A stretch of DNA of 64,000 nucleotides from Oscillospiraceae bacterium (GCA_015065545.1 SVQA01000009.1:19016-83015); one strand, 5' to 3'; positions 2,011-45,057 are shown, numbered from the stretch's first letter. Numbers and translations are program-made. The notes: a model not told the origin generated them from the letters alone.

Positions 2011-4161
2011 GCTTTTGTTTTTCAGAGCATTTCCGATAACTTTTCCTTGCTCTTCATCAAGTCCATACAGTGCCATAATATCTTTATCCAAATCTTCATA
2101 CAGACCGATAATGTTTTGAGACGAACTCATTATGCGGTCTGTTTTTTTTATTACAGCTGTTTGAACTTCTTTGGAAACCATTGGTATGGGCATCTGTTCA
2201 ATATGAGAACGAAGTAGTTTTACGGAATTGAATTTTTTGGAAATATAGTATGCGGCAACACTTGAATTTAGTATAGCAAGGATATACTTCATCTCAAGCC
2301 CCTCAATTTCTGGAATAAGAATGTTACAGCTGTTAAGCGAAAGGGTCTGCTTGTCGTCATAAGCAAACACAGGCACCTCACATATAAAGCGATAAAGGAG
2401 CTTCTCCTTTGCCCGATACAGCTCTGCAGGAGCTACCTGCTGGAAAGCTTCAGGTTCAAAACGAATGTAGTTATCAGAGGGAGTAAATCCGTATCTGTAA
2501 ATATCACTGCCCTTTAAAACGACTTCGTTATCGTCTTGCTTTTCGTCAGAAATAAACTCCTTGTTATTGCCCGTTACAATTCCGAGAGCAAATTTTGCAT
2601 TTTCTTTGAGATACACTGCATTTTCAATATGGCTGATAGTGTTTAGGCATTCATATTCTTCGTCAGATACATTGAAAGCAAAGGCTCCGTCAGAAAAATT
2701 CCTCGGCTGAGATATGGTAAACCTTTCATTATTTACAGAAACTCTGCAGCCTGCTACGTTTTTTTCATAATCCTTTGTAATGCCGAGGATAATAGCAGGA
2801 CACTGAACCCCTGTAAAAGCATTACCAAGATAAGAAATAAATTTAAAGGAACAGCAATCAAGTATGAGCCTTCTCACAGCTTCATGTGCCGCAACACCAA
2901 GTATTGCTTCGGGAAGAACAAAAGACAGCACTCCGCCGGGCAATAGCATATCAAGCGTTTTTTCTACGAATACATCATAGGATTCAATGTTTTTACCAAC
3001 TGCGGTTTTGAACACCTTTCGGCATCTCTCTGCCTCTTCCGGCGTGAAATCACTTCCCCAAGGGGGATTACCGAGAATCACGTCAAATTTACGTTCAAAG
3101 GTTTCAAAGAATGTATTTCCGATAATAATTCTATTACGCAGATCAGCTACAGTCAGATTCGGTGCCATAAGGGCAATATTGATTCTGGCAAGGCAAACAC
3201 TGGTAGGGTCTACATCCTGACCATAAATATTTGAGTAATCGATACCTTTTTTTCCGAGAGATAAAAGGAAGTTACCCGTACCGCAACAAGGGTCGCAAAT
3301 CGTTCTCAAATTAAGCTGTAAATCATTCTCATAAAGCCTTTCTATCATCTCGCCAACTATCTTCTCGGGAGTATAATAAATGCCCGAGCTTTTTCGCTGA
3401 CCAATATCATGCAAAGAAATATAAATAAAACCAAGAGTGTCCTCACCTTTAACAAATGTTATCTCTTTTGTCAAAGCAGGAAGGAGCTTCTTGATTTGGG
3501 AAGCCTTGAGATTATAATTCCCAATCAAATCTTTAACAAGAATATGAAAATCATCTCTGTGAGCTTCAAGCAAAAAGCTATGCAAAACATAATTATCAAA
3601 GTATTCGATCCCATGGCTTTGATAGTAAAGCTGAACGGCAAAGTTAGCCAAAACTATCAGTAAATCCGTTTCATACTCAAAGACTTTAAGTTCCAGAAGG
3701 TCAGAAACCAATCTCTGATTACTCTCATTACGGACATAATCCTTGTAAAGAATCTTACCCATTGCACTCTTTTTGTTTCTTCGGCTTTTGAGCTTTGTGC
3801 TGTTCTCAGATCTGATTTCTGCAACAACCTTCTCAATATATTCACCGCTGAAAAACAATCCGTTCACATCAGGTGTTATCTTACCTAACCGAATCCAGTT
3901 TTTAGCAGTAGCCTTTGAAATTGAGAGAATCCTGCATACATCATCAACCGTCAAAATCTTCGATGATACATCAAAAAGACTCAGTTGATTCTCGTCAACC
4001 TGCTTTTTTCTGGCATCCGAAGGTTTAGGAGCGTCCTCAGGTATCAGCCATACTCCGCTAACCATAGTAGCCCCCTCAATACGTCCCTGCTCACACAAGG
4101 TCTGTACCCGACGTTTTGAGATACCAAACTTTAAAGCTGCATCCCCAACAGAAATATACAT
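1993..4161 (-). CDS. TaqI-like (gamma-class) N6-adenine DNA methyltransferase with two N-terminal excisionase-type HTH domains
   Basis: GIYYTP (motif X), DPCCGTGNF (motif I), GNPPW (motif IV), TaqI_C-like GIVTGNNK...LLYRFI. Start set at ATG 4161 (MYISVG) by GGAGG RBS. Confidence 0.9.
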   Translation of the reverse strand: MYISVGDAALKFGISKRRVQTLCEQGRIEGATMVSGVWLIPEDAPKPSDARKKQVDENQLSLFDVSSKILTVDDVCRILSISKATAKNWIRLGKITPDVNGLFFSGEYIEKVVAEIRSENSTKLKSRRNKKSAMGKILYKDYVRNESNQRLVSDLLELKVFEYETDLLIVLANFAVQLYYQSHGIEYFDNYVLHSFLLEAHRDDFHILVKDLIGNYNLKASQIKKLLPALTKEITFVKGEDTLGFIYISLHDIGQRKSSGIYYTPEKIVGEMIERLYENDLQLNLRTICDPCCGTGNFLLSLGKKGIDYSNIYGQDVDPTSVCLARINIALMAPNLTVADLRNRIIIGNTFFETFERKFDVILGNPPWGSDFTPEEAERCRKVFKTAVGKNIESYDVFVEKTLDMLLPGGVLSFVLPEAILGVAAHEAVRRLILDCCSFKFISYLGNAFTGVQCPAIILGITKDYEKNVAGCRVSVNNERFTISQPRNFSDGAFAFNVSDEEYECLNTISHIENAVYLKENAKFALGIVTGNNKEFISDEKQDDNEVVLKGSDIYRYGFTPSDNYIRFEPEAFQQVAPAELYRAKEKLLYRFICEVPVFAYDDKQTLSLNSCNILIPEIEGLEMKYILAILNSSVAAYYISKKFNSVKLLRSHIEQMPIPMVSKEVQTAVIKKTDRIMSSSQNIIGLYEDLDKDIMALYGLDEEQGKVIGNALKNKSLFLGI

Positions 4162-4286
4162 AGCCGCCTCCAAATTCTTTAATGATTTAACTATACTCTC
4201 TCCTGCGAACAATGTCAACATTAATGATCTAAACGAATTTGTCCTTAATTTATTGAGCTAAGTAAACTCATAAATAATGCTTTTAA

Positions 4287-4319
4287 CCAAACGGGCACCT
4301 TAGAAGGTGCCTGTTTGTC
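4287..4319. terminator. Hairpin terminator between secreted-protein gene and MTase
   Basis: aaacgggcacctt-aga-aggtgcctgttt inverted repeat. Confidence 0.55.
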
Positions 4320-4422
4320 TTTAAATGCAGATAAAACACAAAACAGGCAGCCTCGCTTAATTGCAAGACTGCCTGTGGTGCAGGAACTTTTGGATTGGAT
4401 ATTATTGGTTGCTACTTAATAC

Positions 4423-4914
4423 TTAATAATAGCTGCTTACCTTATATGTACTCTTAACTCTCCATGTAGGATAAGAAGTATAATTTCCTTTAGATAAACA
4501 CTTGATGGTTGCTGCTGTGGAATCCCATTTGATTGTAATGTTATAGGTCTTGTTGGGCTTAAGGTTCAGCTTGATGCTACCGTCTTTAAGTGTTTTGTAA
4601 AACGTATGACTGCCGTCTGTGGCCCTTACGGTAATATCCCACTCACCATACTGATTAGAATTTTTGTATGTAGTTTTACCTGTAAATATATTGTAATTTT
4701 TCTTTGTACAAACACCCTTGCTCTGAGAAATTGTTATTGATTCAGAGCCGGGAATCCAGTAGTTAGCCTTGGTTTTTACAGTAATTGTTCTTGTACTGAT
4801 ACCACTGCTGCAGGTAGCCGCAGATGTAGGCACAGTAATTGCGAACATTGTGCAGAAAATCATTGCGATAGCGATAAGTGTAGTAAAAAGCTTCTTTGTT
4901 CTTGTCATTGTCAT
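4423..4914 (-). CDS. Secreted basic hypothetical protein
   Basis: Sec signal peptide (KKLFTTLIAIAMIFCTMFAITVPTSA|A), GGAGG RBS, Lys/Thr-rich mature region, no recognised family. Confidence 0.75.
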   Translation of the reverse strand: MTMTRTKKLFTTLIAIAMIFCTMFAITVPTSAATCSSGISTRTITVKTKANYWIPGSESITISQSKGVCTKKNYNIFTGKTTYKNSNQYGEWDITVRATDGSHTFYKTLKDGSIKLNLKPNKTYNITIKWDSTAATIKCLSKGNYTSYPTWRVKSTYKVSSYY

Positions 4915-5293
4915 TTTTCATTTCCTCCAAAGTTTGTTGTAATTAAGTTTTATAAGTTATTTAAGTAACATCAATTGCAGCTTTTACAGACCACGAGGGT
5001 CTGTCTTCATATATCCAATCCCTCCCCTATGAAATTTTCAAAGTCCTTTACTGATAAAACTCTGCGATTTTTTATTTTCTCAGGAGTTTTATTTTTTGTA
5101 GCAATTATTTTATTTTGTTTAGTTGCTACACCATAAAGAACACTATAAACAACTGTTTTTCGCAGGAATAGCAGAAATATTTCACAAATATCTGAAAATA
5201 AAATTCTTTTTTCTTTAAATGATGTTATAAGCTATTTTATATGCTATATACTTTTATCCCAAATTCTAAAAAAAGAAAGGACTGACACCATGT

Positions 5294-5992
5294 ATGACCT
5301 ATGTTGTTTCTGATCTGCACGGTTATCCTGTTGAACGTATCGGGCGTAAACTCTCGGAAATCGGCTTTTCACCAGAAGATAACCTTTATGTTCTGGGTGA
5401 CTGTATCGACCGAGGCTCTGACGGACTCAAAATCATCAGATGGATAATGTCCTGCCCCAATGTAATATTGCTTATGGGAAACCACGAATCCATGCTTCTT
5501 AAGAACAGAGGGCTCTTTGAAGGAGACCGAATCCCCTGTGCCAGTGAGCTTACAGGAGCAAAACGCAATTATTATTCTGTTTGGGTTTCCAACGGCGGCT
5601 TTGCTACTATGGATGCTATGCAACAGTATACTCACGCTCAGATAAGATATATGCTGGACTATATTGAAAAAGCTCCTCTCTACAAAGAAATTGAGGTAGG
5701 CGGTAAAAAGTATATTCTTTGTCACAGCGGTCTCGGTGATTTCAATACAGATAAAAAGCTTTCCGATTACTCGGAATACGACCTTTTATGGAGCAGACCT
5801 TCCCTTGAAACAAGATATTACGAAGACGGCACAATTGTTGTTTTCGGTCACACCCCTACTACTCTGTACGGAAGTAAATTCAAGAACAAGCCCGTCTTCA
5901 CAGACACATGGATTGATATTGATGTAGGTGCAGGATTGGGACTTTCTCCTATGATTCTTCGTCTCGATGATATGAAAGAATTTTATTTCTGA
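5294..5992 (+). CDS. Calcineurin-like metallophosphoesterase (PrpA/ApaH-like Ser/Thr phosphatase)
   Basis: DLHG, GDCIDRG, GNHE, HSG and FGHTP motifs; GAAAGGA RBS. Confidence 0.9.
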   Translation: MTYVVSDLHGYPVERIGRKLSEIGFSPEDNLYVLGDCIDRGSDGLKIIRWIMSCPNVILLMGNHESMLLKNRGLFEGDRIPCASELTGAKRNYYSVWVSNGGFATMDAMQQYTHAQIRYMLDYIEKAPLYKEIEVGGKKYILCHSGLGDFNTDKKLSDYSEYDLLWSRPSLETRYYEDGTIVVFGHTPTTLYGSKFKNKPVFTDTWIDIDVGAGLGLSPMILRLDDMKEFYF

Positions 5993-6413: not shown

Positions 6414-7280
6414 TTATGCCTTAACCTTTGTCTTTGCAACAGCATGGTATTCTGTTACACCTACGATGGTTTCTCCGTCAATCTGCAAGGGTGCAGGGCG
6501 GTCAAACTTAACTGTGATATCGTGACCTGAGTGAATCTTAATCATATTCTTGTACTTCAAGTGTTCACCCTTGAACATTGAAGGAAATGCAATCAGACTG
6601 CGAATCTTACCTTTACCGTAATAGAACATTACAGAAAGCTTACCATCCTCGCTCATTCTGTCCTGCTCGGGAGTAGGCATCATACCACCGCCATAGAAGC
6701 GACCCTTCATTGTGGGAGCAAGCCATACCTTGTTGTACTTATACTCCTTGCCGTCAACAACAAGAGTTGCGTTAGTGGGCTTATAGTGGAACAAAAGACC
6801 CTTAATGGCAATTGAGGTATAATCAACGGGCTTGGGAGATGCTTTTTTCATTTCATCGCCCACCTCACAGCAATAGCCGTCAATACCGAAGCCAACATTA
6901 TTCAGGAAATAGTAATCTTTGCCCTTGACCGTTACAACAGGAAGATTCTGCAGATATTTCTTGATGGAGAAGGGTTCTTTTACTCCTACCTTCTCAACAT
7001 CACGAAGGAAATCGTTACCTGTGCCGATAGCATAATAAAGCACATCACAAGGAATTTTAACCTCTGCAGTATCATTCACGAAACGATTGATTGTACCATC
7101 ACCGCCGCAAAGGATAATCGCATCCTCAGCCGAAACACCGGCGAAGAAATCCTTATAATCAGAAATCTTTGTTACATCCATATTTACAAGCTCAGCATCA
7201 AAGAAATCTGAAAGTTTAGTGATTTTTTCTTCTGCCTTACCATCGCCTGCAAGGGGATTGTATAAAACGTAATATTTCAT
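6414..7280 (-). CDS. Diacylglycerol/lipid kinase family protein (DAGK_cat, YegS/DgkB-like)
   Basis: NPLAG, GGDGTIN, GTGNDF, QIDGE motifs; start at ATG 7280 with GGAGG RBS. Confidence 0.92.
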   Translation of the reverse strand: MKYYVLYNPLAGDGKAEEKITKLSDFFDAELVNMDVTKISDYKDFFAGVSAEDAIILCGGDGTINRFVNDTAEVKIPCDVLYYAIGTGNDFLRDVEKVGVKEPFSIKKYLQNLPVVTVKGKDYYFLNNVGFGIDGYCCEVGDEMKKASPKPVDYTSIAIKGLLFHYKPTNATLVVDGKEYKYNKVWLAPTMKGRFYGGGMMPTPEQDRMSEDGKLSVMFYYGKGKIRSLIAFPSMFKGEHLKYKNMIKIHSGHDITVKFDRPAPLQIDGETIVGVTEYHAVAKTKVKA

Positions 7281-7399
7281 AGTCTGCCTCCATAGTCGAC
7301 AATTTTTTACATTTGTCATTATAAAGACAAAAATAAACTGAAAATAAAGTTTTTGATAAAACATCAGTAACACTTTCCATACAAATGAAGAGTTTTCCA

Positions 7400-7493
7400 C
7401 AAACAAAAAAAGAGGTACTCCACAGTACCTCTTATGTCGGGATGTTAAGAACCCAACGCATATAATATAACATATTTACTCTGCTAATGTCAA
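7400..7493 (-). promoter_or_regulatory. SigA promoter, short hairpin and intrinsic terminator upstream of the lipid kinase (attenuator or small RNA)
   Basis: TTGACA (7493-7488)-18 nt-TGnTATATT (7469-7464); stem GUUGGG/CCCGAC; terminator AAGAGGUACU/AGUACCUCUU plus U7. Confidence 0.6.
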
Positions 7494-7579
7494 TTGATAT
7501 GTTGAAATTTATATGGCATACACCACAATTTCTACGATATGTTATAAATTATTATATTAACTTTGTACAATATTCCATC

Positions 7580-8072
7580 TTGAAAATACCCCTACCCTAT
7601 GCTATATTATAGACAGAAAGGATGATACCAATGAAGAGGTAAAAACCTTCGGGTTCAAAACTACTGCAAAACCAAAATTAAATAAGAAAACTAAAGTTAA
7701 TCTGAAACAAAATCGCTAATTAAAACGTGAAACAAAGGATTAAAAATCTGCAAGGTAAGCAGTACGATCAAAAAGAAATTTACCAAATCTAATTTTTTCA
7801 GGTCACAAAATCCAAAACAGATTGAAATTAAAGCTTACTTAATTCAGTTGCAAGTTTAGAACCTAAAACATTGTAATTCTAAAACTCCATCCGACACATA
7901 AGTAAATCTCGCTTAGGAGATAAAAGAAAGAAAAAGTGATACGGAAGCAGAAACAAGAAAAGCAATGTTATCCTGCAGAACAGAGAGGTAGACAACGATG
8001 TTAGATAACAAGAGTGAACAGATTTAACCCTTGACTTGAGTGTAAAACAAAAGTCAAGGGTTATTTCTTTTT
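7580..8072 (+). ncRNA. Candidate ~450-nt A-rich transcript of unknown class with two RBS-led micro-ORFs
   Basis: TTGAAA-17-TGnTATATT promoter (7580-7608), no ORF in the 60-aa track, C(UUCG)G hairpin 7644-7655, 12-bp terminator 8026-8062 plus T tract. Confidence 0.45.
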
Positions 8073-8260
8073 GTGTAGATTTACGCTAAGCTGTGTATTT
8101 AGCCACTTATTTATATAGCTCTCTCAATGAGAGCTGGCATTTTCAAGAAAATAATGTATTCCTTACGTTCATTATTTGTCAAAAGTCTTTCCTCCTTCTT
8201 CATATTGAAAATTTCTGCAGATTTGCTATAATCAATGTAGAAATTTTACAGAGGGATATT

Positions 8261-8938
8261 ATGAAAATAATTGCAAAAATCAAAACCGACTTCCCCACAA
8301 AATTCGGAATACCAAGACAAAGCGGTCTTATCGACAATGTTGCTACCATTGTTTTCGAGAAGGAATACCGCTTCGACGAAGCACTCAGAGGCATTGAGGA
8401 ATACAGCCATCTGTGGCTTTTGTGGGAATTTTCCGAGGTAAAAGACAAGGAATGGTCACCGACGGTTAGACCTCCCAGACTCGGCGGAAACAAGCGTGTT
8501 GGTGTCTTTGCCACTCGTTCACCCTTCAGACCCAACCCTGTGGGACTTTCCTGCGTTGAGCTTTTAGGGTGTGAAAAGACTAACGAGGGTACGGTGCTCA
8601 TCGTCAAGGGTGCCGACCTTATGAACAACACCCCCATCTATGACATAAAACCCTATATTCCTTATGTGGATTGCAAGCCCGAAGCAAAAGGCAGTTTTTC
8701 AGAGGAGAAAAAGAACTATGCACTTTTTGTGGAGTGTGCAGAGGATTCACTCTCTTTAATTCCGACAGAGAAGCAAAGCCCTCTTTTGCAGCTTCTATCT
8801 CAAGACCCTCGACCTGCTTACATAGATGACCCTGCTCGTATTTATGGTTTTGAGTACGCAGGCTTTGAAGTAAAGTTCAAGGTTGAAAACGACACCTTGT
8901 TTGTAATTGACGTAAAGCTCCTAAATAATTCTTGTTGA
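8261..8938 (+). CDS. trmO: tRNA (N6-threonylcarbamoyladenosine37-N6)-methyltransferase TrmO
   Basis: KFGIPRQSG, TVRPPRLGGN, GVFATRSPFRPNPVGLS, DIKPYIP and QDPRPAY motifs. Confidence 0.93.
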   Translation: MKIIAKIKTDFPTKFGIPRQSGLIDNVATIVFEKEYRFDEALRGIEEYSHLWLLWEFSEVKDKEWSPTVRPPRLGGNKRVGVFATRSPFRPNPVGLSCVELLGCEKTNEGTVLIVKGADLMNNTPIYDIKPYIPYVDCKPEAKGSFSEEKKNYALFVECAEDSLSLIPTEKQSPLLQLLSQDPRPAYIDDPARIYGFEYAGFEVKFKVENDTLFVIDVKLLNNSC

Positions 8939-9011
8939 GAATTTTATACATAAATATTTTGCGGATATGATCCATTTAATCTGGGATCCTATCCGCATTT
9001 TTTCGGAATGT

Positions 9012-9029
9012 ATGTTATTTTTTTAACAT
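9012..9029. promoter_or_regulatory. Putative Rex (NADH/NAD+ sensor) operator
   Basis: ATGTTATTTTTTTAACAT, 18 bp, resembles clostridial Rex consensus TTGTTAANNNNTTAACAA; lies upstream of an NAD-linked hydrogenase operon. Confidence 0.55.
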
Positions 9030-9097
9030 TTATTTTCACTATTTACAGAATATCCCTGAAATATCAGTTTTTTTCCCAAAAGTTTTGCAATTTAATA

Positions 9098-9126
9098 TAG
9101 ACATTCGAGTCTTATTATGATACAAT
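9098..9126 (+). promoter_or_regulatory. SigA-type promoter of the hydrogenase operon
   Basis: TAGACA-17 nt-TGnTACAAT. Confidence 0.6.
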
Positions 9127-9206
9127 ACTTTTGTATGTAAAGTGGTGAATTGCGTATTTACCACGGCTACTTATATAATCTTATTCCACACAGGGAGGAT
9201 ATTATA

Positions 9207-9701
9207 ATGCAAAAGAAACTCAGCACACTTCCTTTTAAGGGTACACCCGAACAGGAAGCACAACTCAAAGAAGTAATCAAAGCTCATTTGGACGATCCCG
9301 GTGCAGTTATGCCCGTACTCCAGAAAGCACAGGACATCTACGGTTATCTGCCCATTGAGGTTCAGGCTATGATCGCAGAGGGTCTCAATGTTCCAATGGA
9401 AGAGGTATATGGTGTTTCCACCTTCTACTCTCAGTTCTCTCTCACTCCCAAGGGTGAGTACACAATCTCTGTTTGTCTTGGTACAGCTTGCTACGTTAAG
9501 GGCTCCGGCGACATCTTCGACAAGCTCTCCGAGCGTCTCGGCATCGGCTCCGAGGAATGCACAGAGGACGGTAAGTTCTCTCTTACTGCTTGCCGTTGCA
9601 TCGGTGCTTGCGGTCTTGCTCCCGTTCTTACAATCAACGAGGAAGTTTACGGCAGACTTACAGTTGACGATGTTGACGACATCCTTGCCAAGTACCTCTG
9701 A
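9207..9701 (+). CDS. hndA: NuoE-like [2Fe-2S] subunit of multimeric [FeFe]-hydrogenase (HndA/HydC)
   Basis: VCLGTACYVKG and CRCIGACGLAP Cys motifs; GGGAGG RBS before ATG 9207. Confidence 0.9.
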   Translation: MQKKLSTLPFKGTPEQEAQLKEVIKAHLDDPGAVMPVLQKAQDIYGYLPIEVQAMIAEGLNVPMEEVYGVSTFYSQFSLTPKGEYTISVCLGTACYVKGSGDIFDKLSERLGIGSEECTEDGKFSLTACRCIGACGLAPVLTINEEVYGRLTVDDVDDILAKYL

Positions 9702-44684: not shown

Positions 44685-44811
44685 ACAATCACCTGATTCT
44701 CAAGAATTAATAATATATTTGCAATTATAACACAGTTATTTGATTTTTTCAACAAAACACTTGCCAAATTAACAATTTAGTGATAATATTATTTTTAATT
44801 GATACCGACTA

Positions 44812-45057
44812 AAACGCTATGACGAAGAAAGTAACTTTCAAAGGTACTTTGTAAAGAGAGCGGATGCCGAGGCTGAAAGCATCCGACAAAGTTATGAAAG
44901 TGAAGTTCCCTTCTGAGCGGTGAGGCTGAAATTCACAGTAGGCTTCAACGGCAGGCACCGTTACAAGCCACGGGAGTGTTTGCTTCTTTTGATGCAAAAA
45001 TCAGGGTGGTACCACGGATATTATTCGTCCCTGCGTGTTTTCACGCAGGGAATTTTT
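44812..45057 (+). promoter_or_regulatory. T-box riboswitch (Phe specifier) upstream of pheST
   Basis: AGAGA and GCTGAA stem I elements, specifier GAAG-TTC-CC (44906-44908), T-box AATCAGGGTGGTACCACGG (44999-45017), terminator ccctgcgtg/cacgcaggg. Confidence 0.93.

Follow-up and report, generated by a model that had tools for sequence, protein, structure and literature searches.

The locus and its transcription unit

The window analysed here is a 64,000-nt stretch of the genome of an Oscillospiraceae bacterium (GCA_015065545.1, SVQA01000009.1:19016-83015). A 980-nt intergenic gap within it, bounded on one side by a DagK/YegS-like gene (6414-7280, minus strand) and on the other by trmO (8261-8938, plus strand), holds at 7580-8073 a stand-alone transcription unit with no protein gene inside. 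An earlier note, made from the sequence of the window, had remarked on full expression signals at this place without a conventional product, and all the elements that it listed were located where it had put them. We describe here the RNA of this unit, which is a member of an uncatalogued, often multi-copy gene family of gut Eubacteriales (Ruminococcus, Oscillospiraceae, Acutalibacteraceae), and which, like its relatives, is an independently transcribed, very abundant small RNA. It contains two conserved units of the same build, each consisting of a Shine-Dalgarno (SD) region, a very short open reading frame (ORF), a stop codon and a hairpin, and we tentatively interpret it as a ribosome-stabilised micropeptide mRNA or a dual-function small RNA.

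The unit begins with a sigma-70-type promoter on the plus strand (7580-7608), made up of TTGAAA (7580-7585), a 17-nt spacer and the extended -10 element TGcTATATT (7600-7608), as the earlier note had read it; it scores 10 of 12 consensus matches plus the TG extension. In the relatives L001 and L004 neither the -10 region nor the stretch that follows shows any difference, and the promoter is kept family-wide. The RNA proper (7615-8072, plus strand, ~455 nt) has a predicted 5' end at ~7614-7616 and a 3' end in the T-tract of a terminator. Over 7615-8072 its A content is 45%, its minimum free energy (MFE) z-score is -4.15, and stop codons, reported by the note for all frames, are indeed present in all six. 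Being conserved in relatives and transcribed, the unit as a whole is far beyond chance.

Expression in gut metatranscriptomes

Expression was assessed as word depth in four gut metatranscriptome runs with contigs matching parts of the region. Depth reached ~4,000-5,000 over 7742-7805 and up to ~46,000 over 8001-8028, values that over such conserved blocks come largely from related species sharing them, and it was ~0 over the flanking genes. For an L026-like relative in run X26 the whole RNA stood at a depth of 590-24,000, with 2.5 kb of flanking genes at 0. The window's own species is rare in the sampled metatranscriptomes; run X24 contained a 177-nt contig identical to the species-specific segment 7746-7922, and no other long identical contig was found within 20 kb. 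The -10 element ends at 7608 and the SD begins at 7616, which brackets the predicted transcription start, and a relative's 444-nt contig (depth 2051) begins at the counterpart of 7619, a few nucleotides away from where the -10 element predicts transcription to start. The conserved words also occur in runs from other studies, of bovine gut and an anaerobic digester.

The earlier note had proposed looking for a ~450-nt species by RNA-seq, and had named the lack of a transcript as an outcome that would count against it. Metatranscriptome contigs cover parts of the unit, the identical 177-nt contig among them, and depth is in the thousands vs 0 in the flanks. The RNA and its relatives are far more abundant than the neighbouring genes in animal-gut metatranscriptomes, their hosts are major fibre-degrading commensals, and neither Rfam nor the searchable literature has an entry for them; for gut metatranscriptomics the RNA is a marker transcript so far without assignment.

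Distribution, copy number and synteny

A degenerate peptide search of one genome per GTDB species gave 36 loci in 36 species-level genomes, all of them Ruminococcus sp., Oscillospiraceae, Faecousia, Acutalibacteraceae or unclassified Clostridia. The samples were of gut origin (human, goat, roe deer and others). Since this set was picked by a peptide pattern, it is not unbiased evidence on selection of the ORF. A metagenome scan anchored only on the ribosome-binding site (RBS) and TAACCC, with the ORF left unspecified, gave 40 loci, one of which is a chance match. A covariance-model search added further paralogs, for an overall count of ~75 loci of the same architecture from three families.

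Several genomes carry more than one copy. There are three in L034 (Faecousia, 3603-5888), two of them adjacent, and three within 8 kb in L055 (2813-10489); L037 (446-5909) and L021 (150-941) have two each, some copies are in tandem, and in two metagenome-assembled genomes (MAGs) the copies lie on separate contigs (L012 with L044; L032 with L038). This multi-copy character had escaped the earlier note, as had any notion of a gene family. Its proposal of a pattern search combined with a look at synteny did lead to the family, but synteny was found in close relatives only. Non-conservation of the signals, another outcome that it had named as damaging, is not what we observed, as both micro-ORFs and their RBSs are conserved across three bacterial families.

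No covariance model of Rfam 15 matched 6500-9500 even at E≤1, and nine other family loci gave only sub-threshold chance matches; ARAGORN found no tRNA or tmRNA in 7000-8600. A phage origin was rejected on the basis of 0 matches among viral contigs. The peptide strings occur in no paper, general literature searches returned nothing relevant to the RNA family, and the literature matches to TTGTACAA looked unrelated (cloning, strain construction), as judged without opening them.

By the TrmO protein encoded next to the RNA, the organism falls among Ruminococcus-like MAGs. Synteny of trmO extends only to the closest relatives, L001 and L004 (TrmO identity 80-82%), in both of which 7590-7643 is identical to the window; 7973-8027 shows two substitutions (C/T at 7976 in both, and a synonymous ATT to ATC in one), and the middle has large indels. 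Another proposal is that the unit is the remnant of a protein gene, or that its signals came together by chance in a long AT-rich spacer. This would account for the stops in all frames and the 980-nt gap between genes, but its probability is negligible: the modular architecture recurs in ~75 loci of three families with a conserved promoter, a covarying terminator and very high expression, and at the homologous place no relative has a long ORF, although the earlier note had allowed for alignment to a decayed gene.

The gene neighbourhood bears on a further proposal, that the unit is a cis-acting leader or attenuator in which translation of its 9-codon ORF would control read-through into the downstream gene, here trmO. 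A short ORF ending in a terminator is the layout of ribosome-dependent attenuators, and trmO lies within 3 kb of the RNA in 12 loci of several lineages, in variable orientation. The downstream gene is not conserved, however, being convergent in L007 and L018 and a different ORF in L001, and relatives at 72-76% TrmO identity have trmO without the RNA; we read the proximity in distant lineages as residual synteny. In the window trmO has its own near-consensus promoter (8205-8232), RNA depth falls from thousands to 0 past the terminator, and copies of the RNA form tandem arrays. The proposal is largely refuted by the absent synteny, and we consider it very improbable.

The 3' module: a micro-ORF that ends in the terminator stem

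The 3' RBS region CUGCAGAACAGAGAGGUAGACAACG (7973-7997, plus strand), with its SD GAGAGGU at 7983-7989, is followed by a 9-codon micro-ORF (7998-8027, plus strand), AUG UUA GAU AAC AAG AGU GAA CAG AUU UAA, or MLDNKSEQI*. Both had been picked out in the earlier note, and both are conserved in relatives. From 7977 on the RBS region is identical in L001 and L004, while 7973-7976 reads CUGC here and CUGU in both, and the family consensus CUGYAGAAAGAGAGGU is retained even in paralogs with a different ORF. Among the 39 real members recovered with the anchor that leaves the ORF unspecified, 34 have an open ORF of 9 codons; the frame is shifted in three copies, whose contigs have low coverage or look error-prone in other ways, the ORF of L063 is 8 codons long, and L070 is not in the tally. 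The 19 unique ORFs from this set always have 9 codons (10 with a second AUG) and no in-frame stops, with the consensus peptide M-L-D-[NTI]-K-[STNI]-x-[Q/E mostly]-[K/R mostly]. To our knowledge the micro-ORF is among the shortest conserved bacterial ORFs.

A second ORF class, M(I)EP, occurs in the same SD-ORF-terminator layout, with the peptides MIEPNNEER, MIEPKHSGNNP and MEPTQHMK. Copies of this class were seen in L055 (8804-8918 and 2813-2926) and L063 (4386-4503), and in one of them the stop is shifted to a TGA deeper in the stem.

The micro-ORF runs into the intrinsic terminator (8025-8073, plus strand), which pairs 8025-8037 with 8051-8063 in a 13-bp stem around a 13-nt loop and ends in a T-tract (8064-8073). 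The first three stem pairs are formed by the stop codon UAA with UUA, an arrangement found in 32 of 32 sequences; the earlier note was right about the terminator, but gave the stem 12 bp and missed the stop codon in it. The fold has a z-score of -4.2, and across 32 non-redundant members 95.9% of the cells are paired and 41 cells are compensatory, a level reached by 0 of 500 shuffles. In two paralogs (L034 3603-3725 and L021 150-274) a UGA is paired to UCA, a compensatory change that touches the stop codon. The covariation of UAA/UUA and UGA/UCA links translation termination to the structure of the RNA 3' end, and we know of no family described as having its stop codon locked into the terminator stem.

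The apical part of the terminator hairpin (RUGUGUAAAGAAACAY; loop at 8038-8050 in the window), with the loop sequence GUGUAAAGAAAC, was also seen to be conserved in several otherwise divergent lineages, for example L013, L027, L031 and L053, which hints at a binding site in the loop.

The 5' module

The 5' module (7614-7642, plus strand) has its SD at the extreme 5' end of the RNA (CAGAAAGGAUGAU; GAAAGGA, 7616-7622), followed by an 8-nt spacer and the 3-codon ORF AUG AAG AGG UAA (7631-7642). The RBS and the MKR* peptide agree with the earlier note, and the module is conserved in relatives, the 5' block being identical in 12 Ruminococcus-type members. Of 42 unique promoter-anchored 5' ends, nearly all have the SD, 34 (~80%) have a 2-3-codon ORF (MKR, MYR, MI, MF, MQR and others), and six keep the SD without an AUG; the position and length of the mini-ORF are conserved, and its amino acids are not. 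The 5' SD/anti-SD duplex, at -12.2 kcal/mol, is above the window-gene median of -9.6, and the 3' SD is about average. An exceptionally strong SD was considered and dropped, as these energies are good and neither is extreme relative to the genes of the window.

Directly after the mini-ORF stop comes a small hairpin, AACC-UUCG-GGUU (7644-7655, plus strand). The sequence is as the earlier note had given it, but the tetraloop hairpin is unstable alone (z -0.48), and it is not a family trait, the relatives carrying ACC..GGU-type hairpins with other loops.

The two RBS regions (7614-7633 and 7976-8000 in the window) were observed to be alike family-wide, sharing CAGAAAG..GGU.A.ACCAAUG, and this likeness suggests a duplicated module or a shared binding partner. 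No further copies of the shared motif were found in the window, with patterns that matched the window's own variant poorly.

The variable spacer and the internal hairpin

An A-rich, G-poor variable spacer (7656-7890, plus strand) lies between the modules. It has large indels between relatives, L004 being without ~100 nt of the middle, and the gap between the 5' and 3' modules ranges from 157 to 397 nt across the family; most members have an A fraction of 0.44-0.52, the GC-richer ones one of 0.27-0.37. Within the spacer a clade-conserved block (7742-7805, plus strand) contains the hairpin CUGC-AAGGUAA-GCAG (7748-7762). Beyond it stands a conserved internal hairpin, AUCUC-GCUUAG-GAGAU (7906-7921, plus strand), with the family consensus UCUCR-CUUA-YGAGA preceded by AAGUAAA. 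RNAalifold predicts this hairpin with a UA to GC compensatory change, and in other lineages the stems are CCUC/GAGG, UCCC/GGGA and GCUC/GAGC. The earlier note had overlooked this covarying hairpin. It is missing from the short family forms of ~255 nt, which consist of little beyond one long hairpin with an A-rich loop.

Larger structures were tried and rejected. For the window the MFE fold has a three-helix core built around the internal hairpin, but this core is absent from the RNAalifold prediction and gave p=0.29 in a permutation of cognate vs non-cognate pairings. A long-range helix between the 5' and 3' parts (ACAGA with UCUGU) shows no covariation, because its 3' side is invariant while its 5' side changes.

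On the strength of 8 AAAAC and 5 AAATC motifs in 7640-7910, the earlier note had likened the RNA to protein sponges. The counts are correct, and they exceed those in mononucleotide shuffles (p 0.0005 and 0.005); the excess shrinks to a marginal one with dinucleotide shuffles as the reference (p 0.04 and 0.011), and over 36 non-redundant members it is weak (z 2.8 and 1.9), the top enriched words being hairpins and not A-rich motifs. The excess is mostly an effect of composition, the motifs are no family trait, and AAAAC/AAAUC were rejected as binding motifs because they are not conserved. GGA is not enriched (4 in 458 nt vs 5.6 expected), and the RNA has no tandem repeats.

These results weaken the analogy, and with it the proposal of a protein-sponge or other non-translated regulatory RNA, in which a protein would bind the A-rich region or the hairpins and the micro-ORFs would serve only to stabilise. 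Such an RNA could well be as abundant as this one and, as in most members, A-rich and G-poor, and the covarying internal hairpin with its conserved AAGUAAA flank, or the terminator loop conserved in several lineages, might be where a protein binds. Apart from the motif counts and the lack of repeats, however, the A-rich part measures anywhere from 157 to 397 nt and has next to no conserved sequence, the ~255-nt forms do without the internal hairpin, and the GC-richer members are not A-rich, and we regard the proposal as improbable.

Direct repeats upstream of the promoter

When ~50 family promoters were aligned at the -35 element, ~60 bp upstream of it proved to be conserved, a feature absent from the earlier note, which had described the promoter itself correctly. 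In the window this region (7528-7579, plus strand) comprises ATTTCT (7528-7533), a distal box ATATGTTATAA (7537-7547), a proximal box CTTTGTACAAT (7561-7571) and ATTCCATC (7572-7579), which adjoins the -35 element. The two boxes are direct repeats, roughly TTTTGTAYAA, that lie ~22 bp apart and abut the -35 element. Of 35 members, 23 have the proximal box (≤1 mismatch), 21 the distal box (≤2 mismatches) and 22 the ATTTCT, and the combination of proximal box and -35 element occurs a single time in the 64-kb window.

The repeats are a probable transcription-factor site. Repeats next to the -35 element are the geometry of promoters activated by response-regulator or LytTR-type factors, for example the agr P3-RNAIII and VirR-VR-RNA promoters, both of which have two direct repeats there, as does the RNA described here; by analogy, a regulator of this type may act on the present promoter. 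The repeats point to a regulator and its regulon.

Two proposed readings: a micropeptide mRNA or a regulator that engages ribosomes

The explanation that we favour, though with a confidence a little short of even, is that the RNA is a ribosome-stabilised micropeptide mRNA or a dual-function small RNA. The earlier note had listed a ribosome-protected stable RNA and a micro-peptide operon among its options, and these fit the conservation of both ORFs and both RBSs in three families. In the proposed mechanism the RNA would be made from a strong sigma-70-type promoter under the control of a dedicated DNA-binding regulator acting through the two direct repeats at the -35 element. A ribosome would load on the SD at the very 5' end, usually cycling on the 2-3-codon ORF, and this loading would shield the RNA against 5'-to-3' decay in the manner of the STAB-SD and ermC-type stabilisers of Firmicutes, with the A-rich, G-poor spacer keeping the 3' RBS open. 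The 9-codon ORF would be translated up to the base of the terminator, and the terminating ribosome would therefore have to open the stem; as the stop codon is itself the first three stem pairs, there would be no unprotected 3' UTR. Ribosome occupancy and hairpin formation would alternate, and the RNA would persist for long and yield chiefly a nonapeptide (MLDNKSEQI in the window), to which the conserved internal hairpin may add a second role at the RNA level.

The case for the peptide comes from synonymous switches in the 3' ORF, which affect Leu (UUA/UUG/CUC), Ser (AGY/UCA) and, in the second class, Ile (AUA/AUU), and from the beginning M-[LI]-[DE] that both peptide classes share; together these suggest selection on the amino acids.

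A number of points weigh against this explanation. Codons 2, 3 and 5 are fixed even at their third positions (TTA in 18 of 19, GAT in 19 of 19 and AAG in 19 of 19), and at codon 9 AAA and AAG are equally used, a pattern that points to a nucleotide-level constraint on the initiation region and not to peptide selection alone. At codons 4 and 6 it is mainly the middle base that changes, and the resulting residues, N, T, I or S, are chemically unlike. The 9-residue peptide is hydrophilic, with no export signal and no obvious target, and its residues 6-8 vary widely. The SDs are good but not exceptional, and the 5' AUG is missing in some copies. Translation of the 3' ORF is deduced by comparison, from its fixed length, a frame that stays open though codons 6-9 vary, the synonymous switches and the conserved SD, and the plus strand of the transcript from the promoter, the terminator and conservation, the contigs being directionless.

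The same ORF can be read in another way, in which the act of translation matters and not the peptide. The RNA would then be a riboregulator on which ribosomes are detained at two dead-end micro-ORFs, each with a strong SD in front and a hairpin at its stop or right behind it. It would trap ribosomes or sense the state of translation, and the terminating ribosome would melt the terminator, exposing its 3' arm and the U-tail to partners or to decay. Architecture is in fact conserved more than sequence: codon 7 is unconstrained, codon 8 is CAG and codon 9 AAR in most cases, and codons 6-9 vary freely, with the length of the ORF and the position of its stop fixed and the stop-in-stem arrangement kept by covariation; over its first 16 nt the 3' ORF shows no variation in nucleotide sequence. 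The 5' mini-ORF likewise swaps its amino acids but stays in place and at 2-3 codons, the layout is the same in paralogs whose ORF is entirely different, the two RBS regions share CAGAAAG..GGU.A.ACCAAUG, and the RNA is extremely abundant. On the other side stand the Leu, Ser and Ile synonymous switches and the shared M-[LI]-[DE] start, which suggest amino-acid selection, SDs that are not unusually strong, and the fact that we know of no precedent for a ribosome-sponge RNA. We take this to be the main rival of the favoured explanation, though less probable than it.

Signals of selection on the amino acids and on nucleotides or architecture are both present in the 3' ORF, and the micro-ORF is a tractable case for asking which of the two, the peptide or the act of translation, is the selected trait. 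In a more specific form, which we consider doubtful, a transcription-factor-controlled RNA would park ribosomes on its two dead-end micro-ORFs and so tune or report free translation capacity, termination transiently unmasking the 3' arm. If true, such a ribosome-engaging RNA would amount to an unprecedented kind of riboregulation in bacteria that are among the most abundant gut commensals. Independently of these readings, the cassette offers a natural design where RNA is to accumulate to very high levels in Clostridia.

Comparison with known systems

With regulatory RNAs that contain a small ORF, such as S. aureus RNAIII/hld, B. subtilis SR1/SR1P and C. perfringens VR-RNA, the RNA shares its stand-alone and abundant character, a length in the range of 250-500 nt, its own promoter and terminator, and the small ORF itself (such RNAs are reviewed in PMC12612679). 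Being stand-alone and abundant is also what it has in common with dual-function small RNAs in general. The differences are an ORF of 9 codons here vs 26-43 or more there, the presence of two micro-ORFs, the stop inside the terminator stem, and the lack of sequence or Rfam similarity.

Leader-peptide attenuators offer the other close parallel. The leader ORFs of cat86 and cmlA are also 9 codons long. The short ORF overlapping an intrinsic terminator, which is typical of attenuators, is present here; the conserved downstream gene is not, and the ORF is not 5'-terminal but follows a spacer of ~157-397 nt. No regulatory codons or antiterminator were identified, none being obvious in the alignments, in which no systematic antiterminator search was made. 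In S. meliloti the attenuator rnTrpL is released as a trans-acting RNA and encodes the 14-aa peptide peTrpL (PMC7298713, PMC7968998). There, as here, a very short ORF with its SD leads into an intrinsic terminator, and the transcript left by termination builds up as a small RNA with an ORF for a tiny peptide.

For the 5' module, the counterparts are the STAB-SD of cryIIIA and the ermC leader, which in Firmicutes stabilise mRNA at its 5' end through ribosome binding. The SD lies within a few nucleotides of the 5' end here as well, and by analogy it may have the same stabilising effect; STAB-SD works without a start codon, and 6 of 42 members of the present family likewise lack one. In layout the module also resembles the two-codon 'bar' minigenes of phage lambda, with an SD, an AUG, one or two sense codons and a stop in 34 of 42 members (MKR* in the window).

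Other well-known RNAs are less alike. The sponges CsrB/RsmZ and CrcZ are similar in their abundance and A-rich character, but the repeated GGA hairpins of CsrB/RsmZ are absent here (4 GGA vs 5.6 expected), and there is no counterpart to CrcZ in conserved A-rich motifs, the spacer being unconserved in sequence and length. Like tmRNA, the RNA is abundant and has an ORF of about 10 codons that ends in UAA beside a helix, but ARAGORN and Rfam found no tRNA-like domain, and the ORF has a normal SD and AUG. Type III toxin-antitoxin RNAs (ToxI-like) consist of tandem ~36-nt repeats followed by a toxin gene, unlike the present RNA, which has neither tandem repeats nor a conserved downstream gene. By analogy, then, the RNA would in its working be most like the small-ORF small RNAs and orphan leader-peptide-terminator RNAs, and it is set apart from them by the 9-codon ORF, the double micro-ORF design, the stop codon within the stem and the absence of a downstream gene under its control.

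Other features of the neighbourhood

Back-to-back with the promoter of the RNA, a mini-unit on the minus strand (7398-7493) has a near-consensus promoter (TTGACA, 18 nt, TGtTATATT; 7493-7464) and a predicted ~55-nt RNA in which an initial hairpin is followed by a strong terminator (7433-7410; fold z -3.9). It stops 125 nt upstream of the DagK/YegS-like gene, has a like layout in the relative L004 and no Rfam match, and could be a leader/attenuator or a small RNA. On the other side of the RNA, a promoter-like site on the minus strand (8153-8182; TTGACA, 18 nt, TACATT) is directed toward the RNA terminator and could be the source of an antisense transcript. In L001 a 175-aa ORF (2348-2875) with hydrophobic N- and C-terminal segments and no Pfam match is inserted between the RNA and trmO. 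The sole Rfam family match in the window is a T-box leader at 44810-45035 on the plus strand (RF00230, 134.6 bits).

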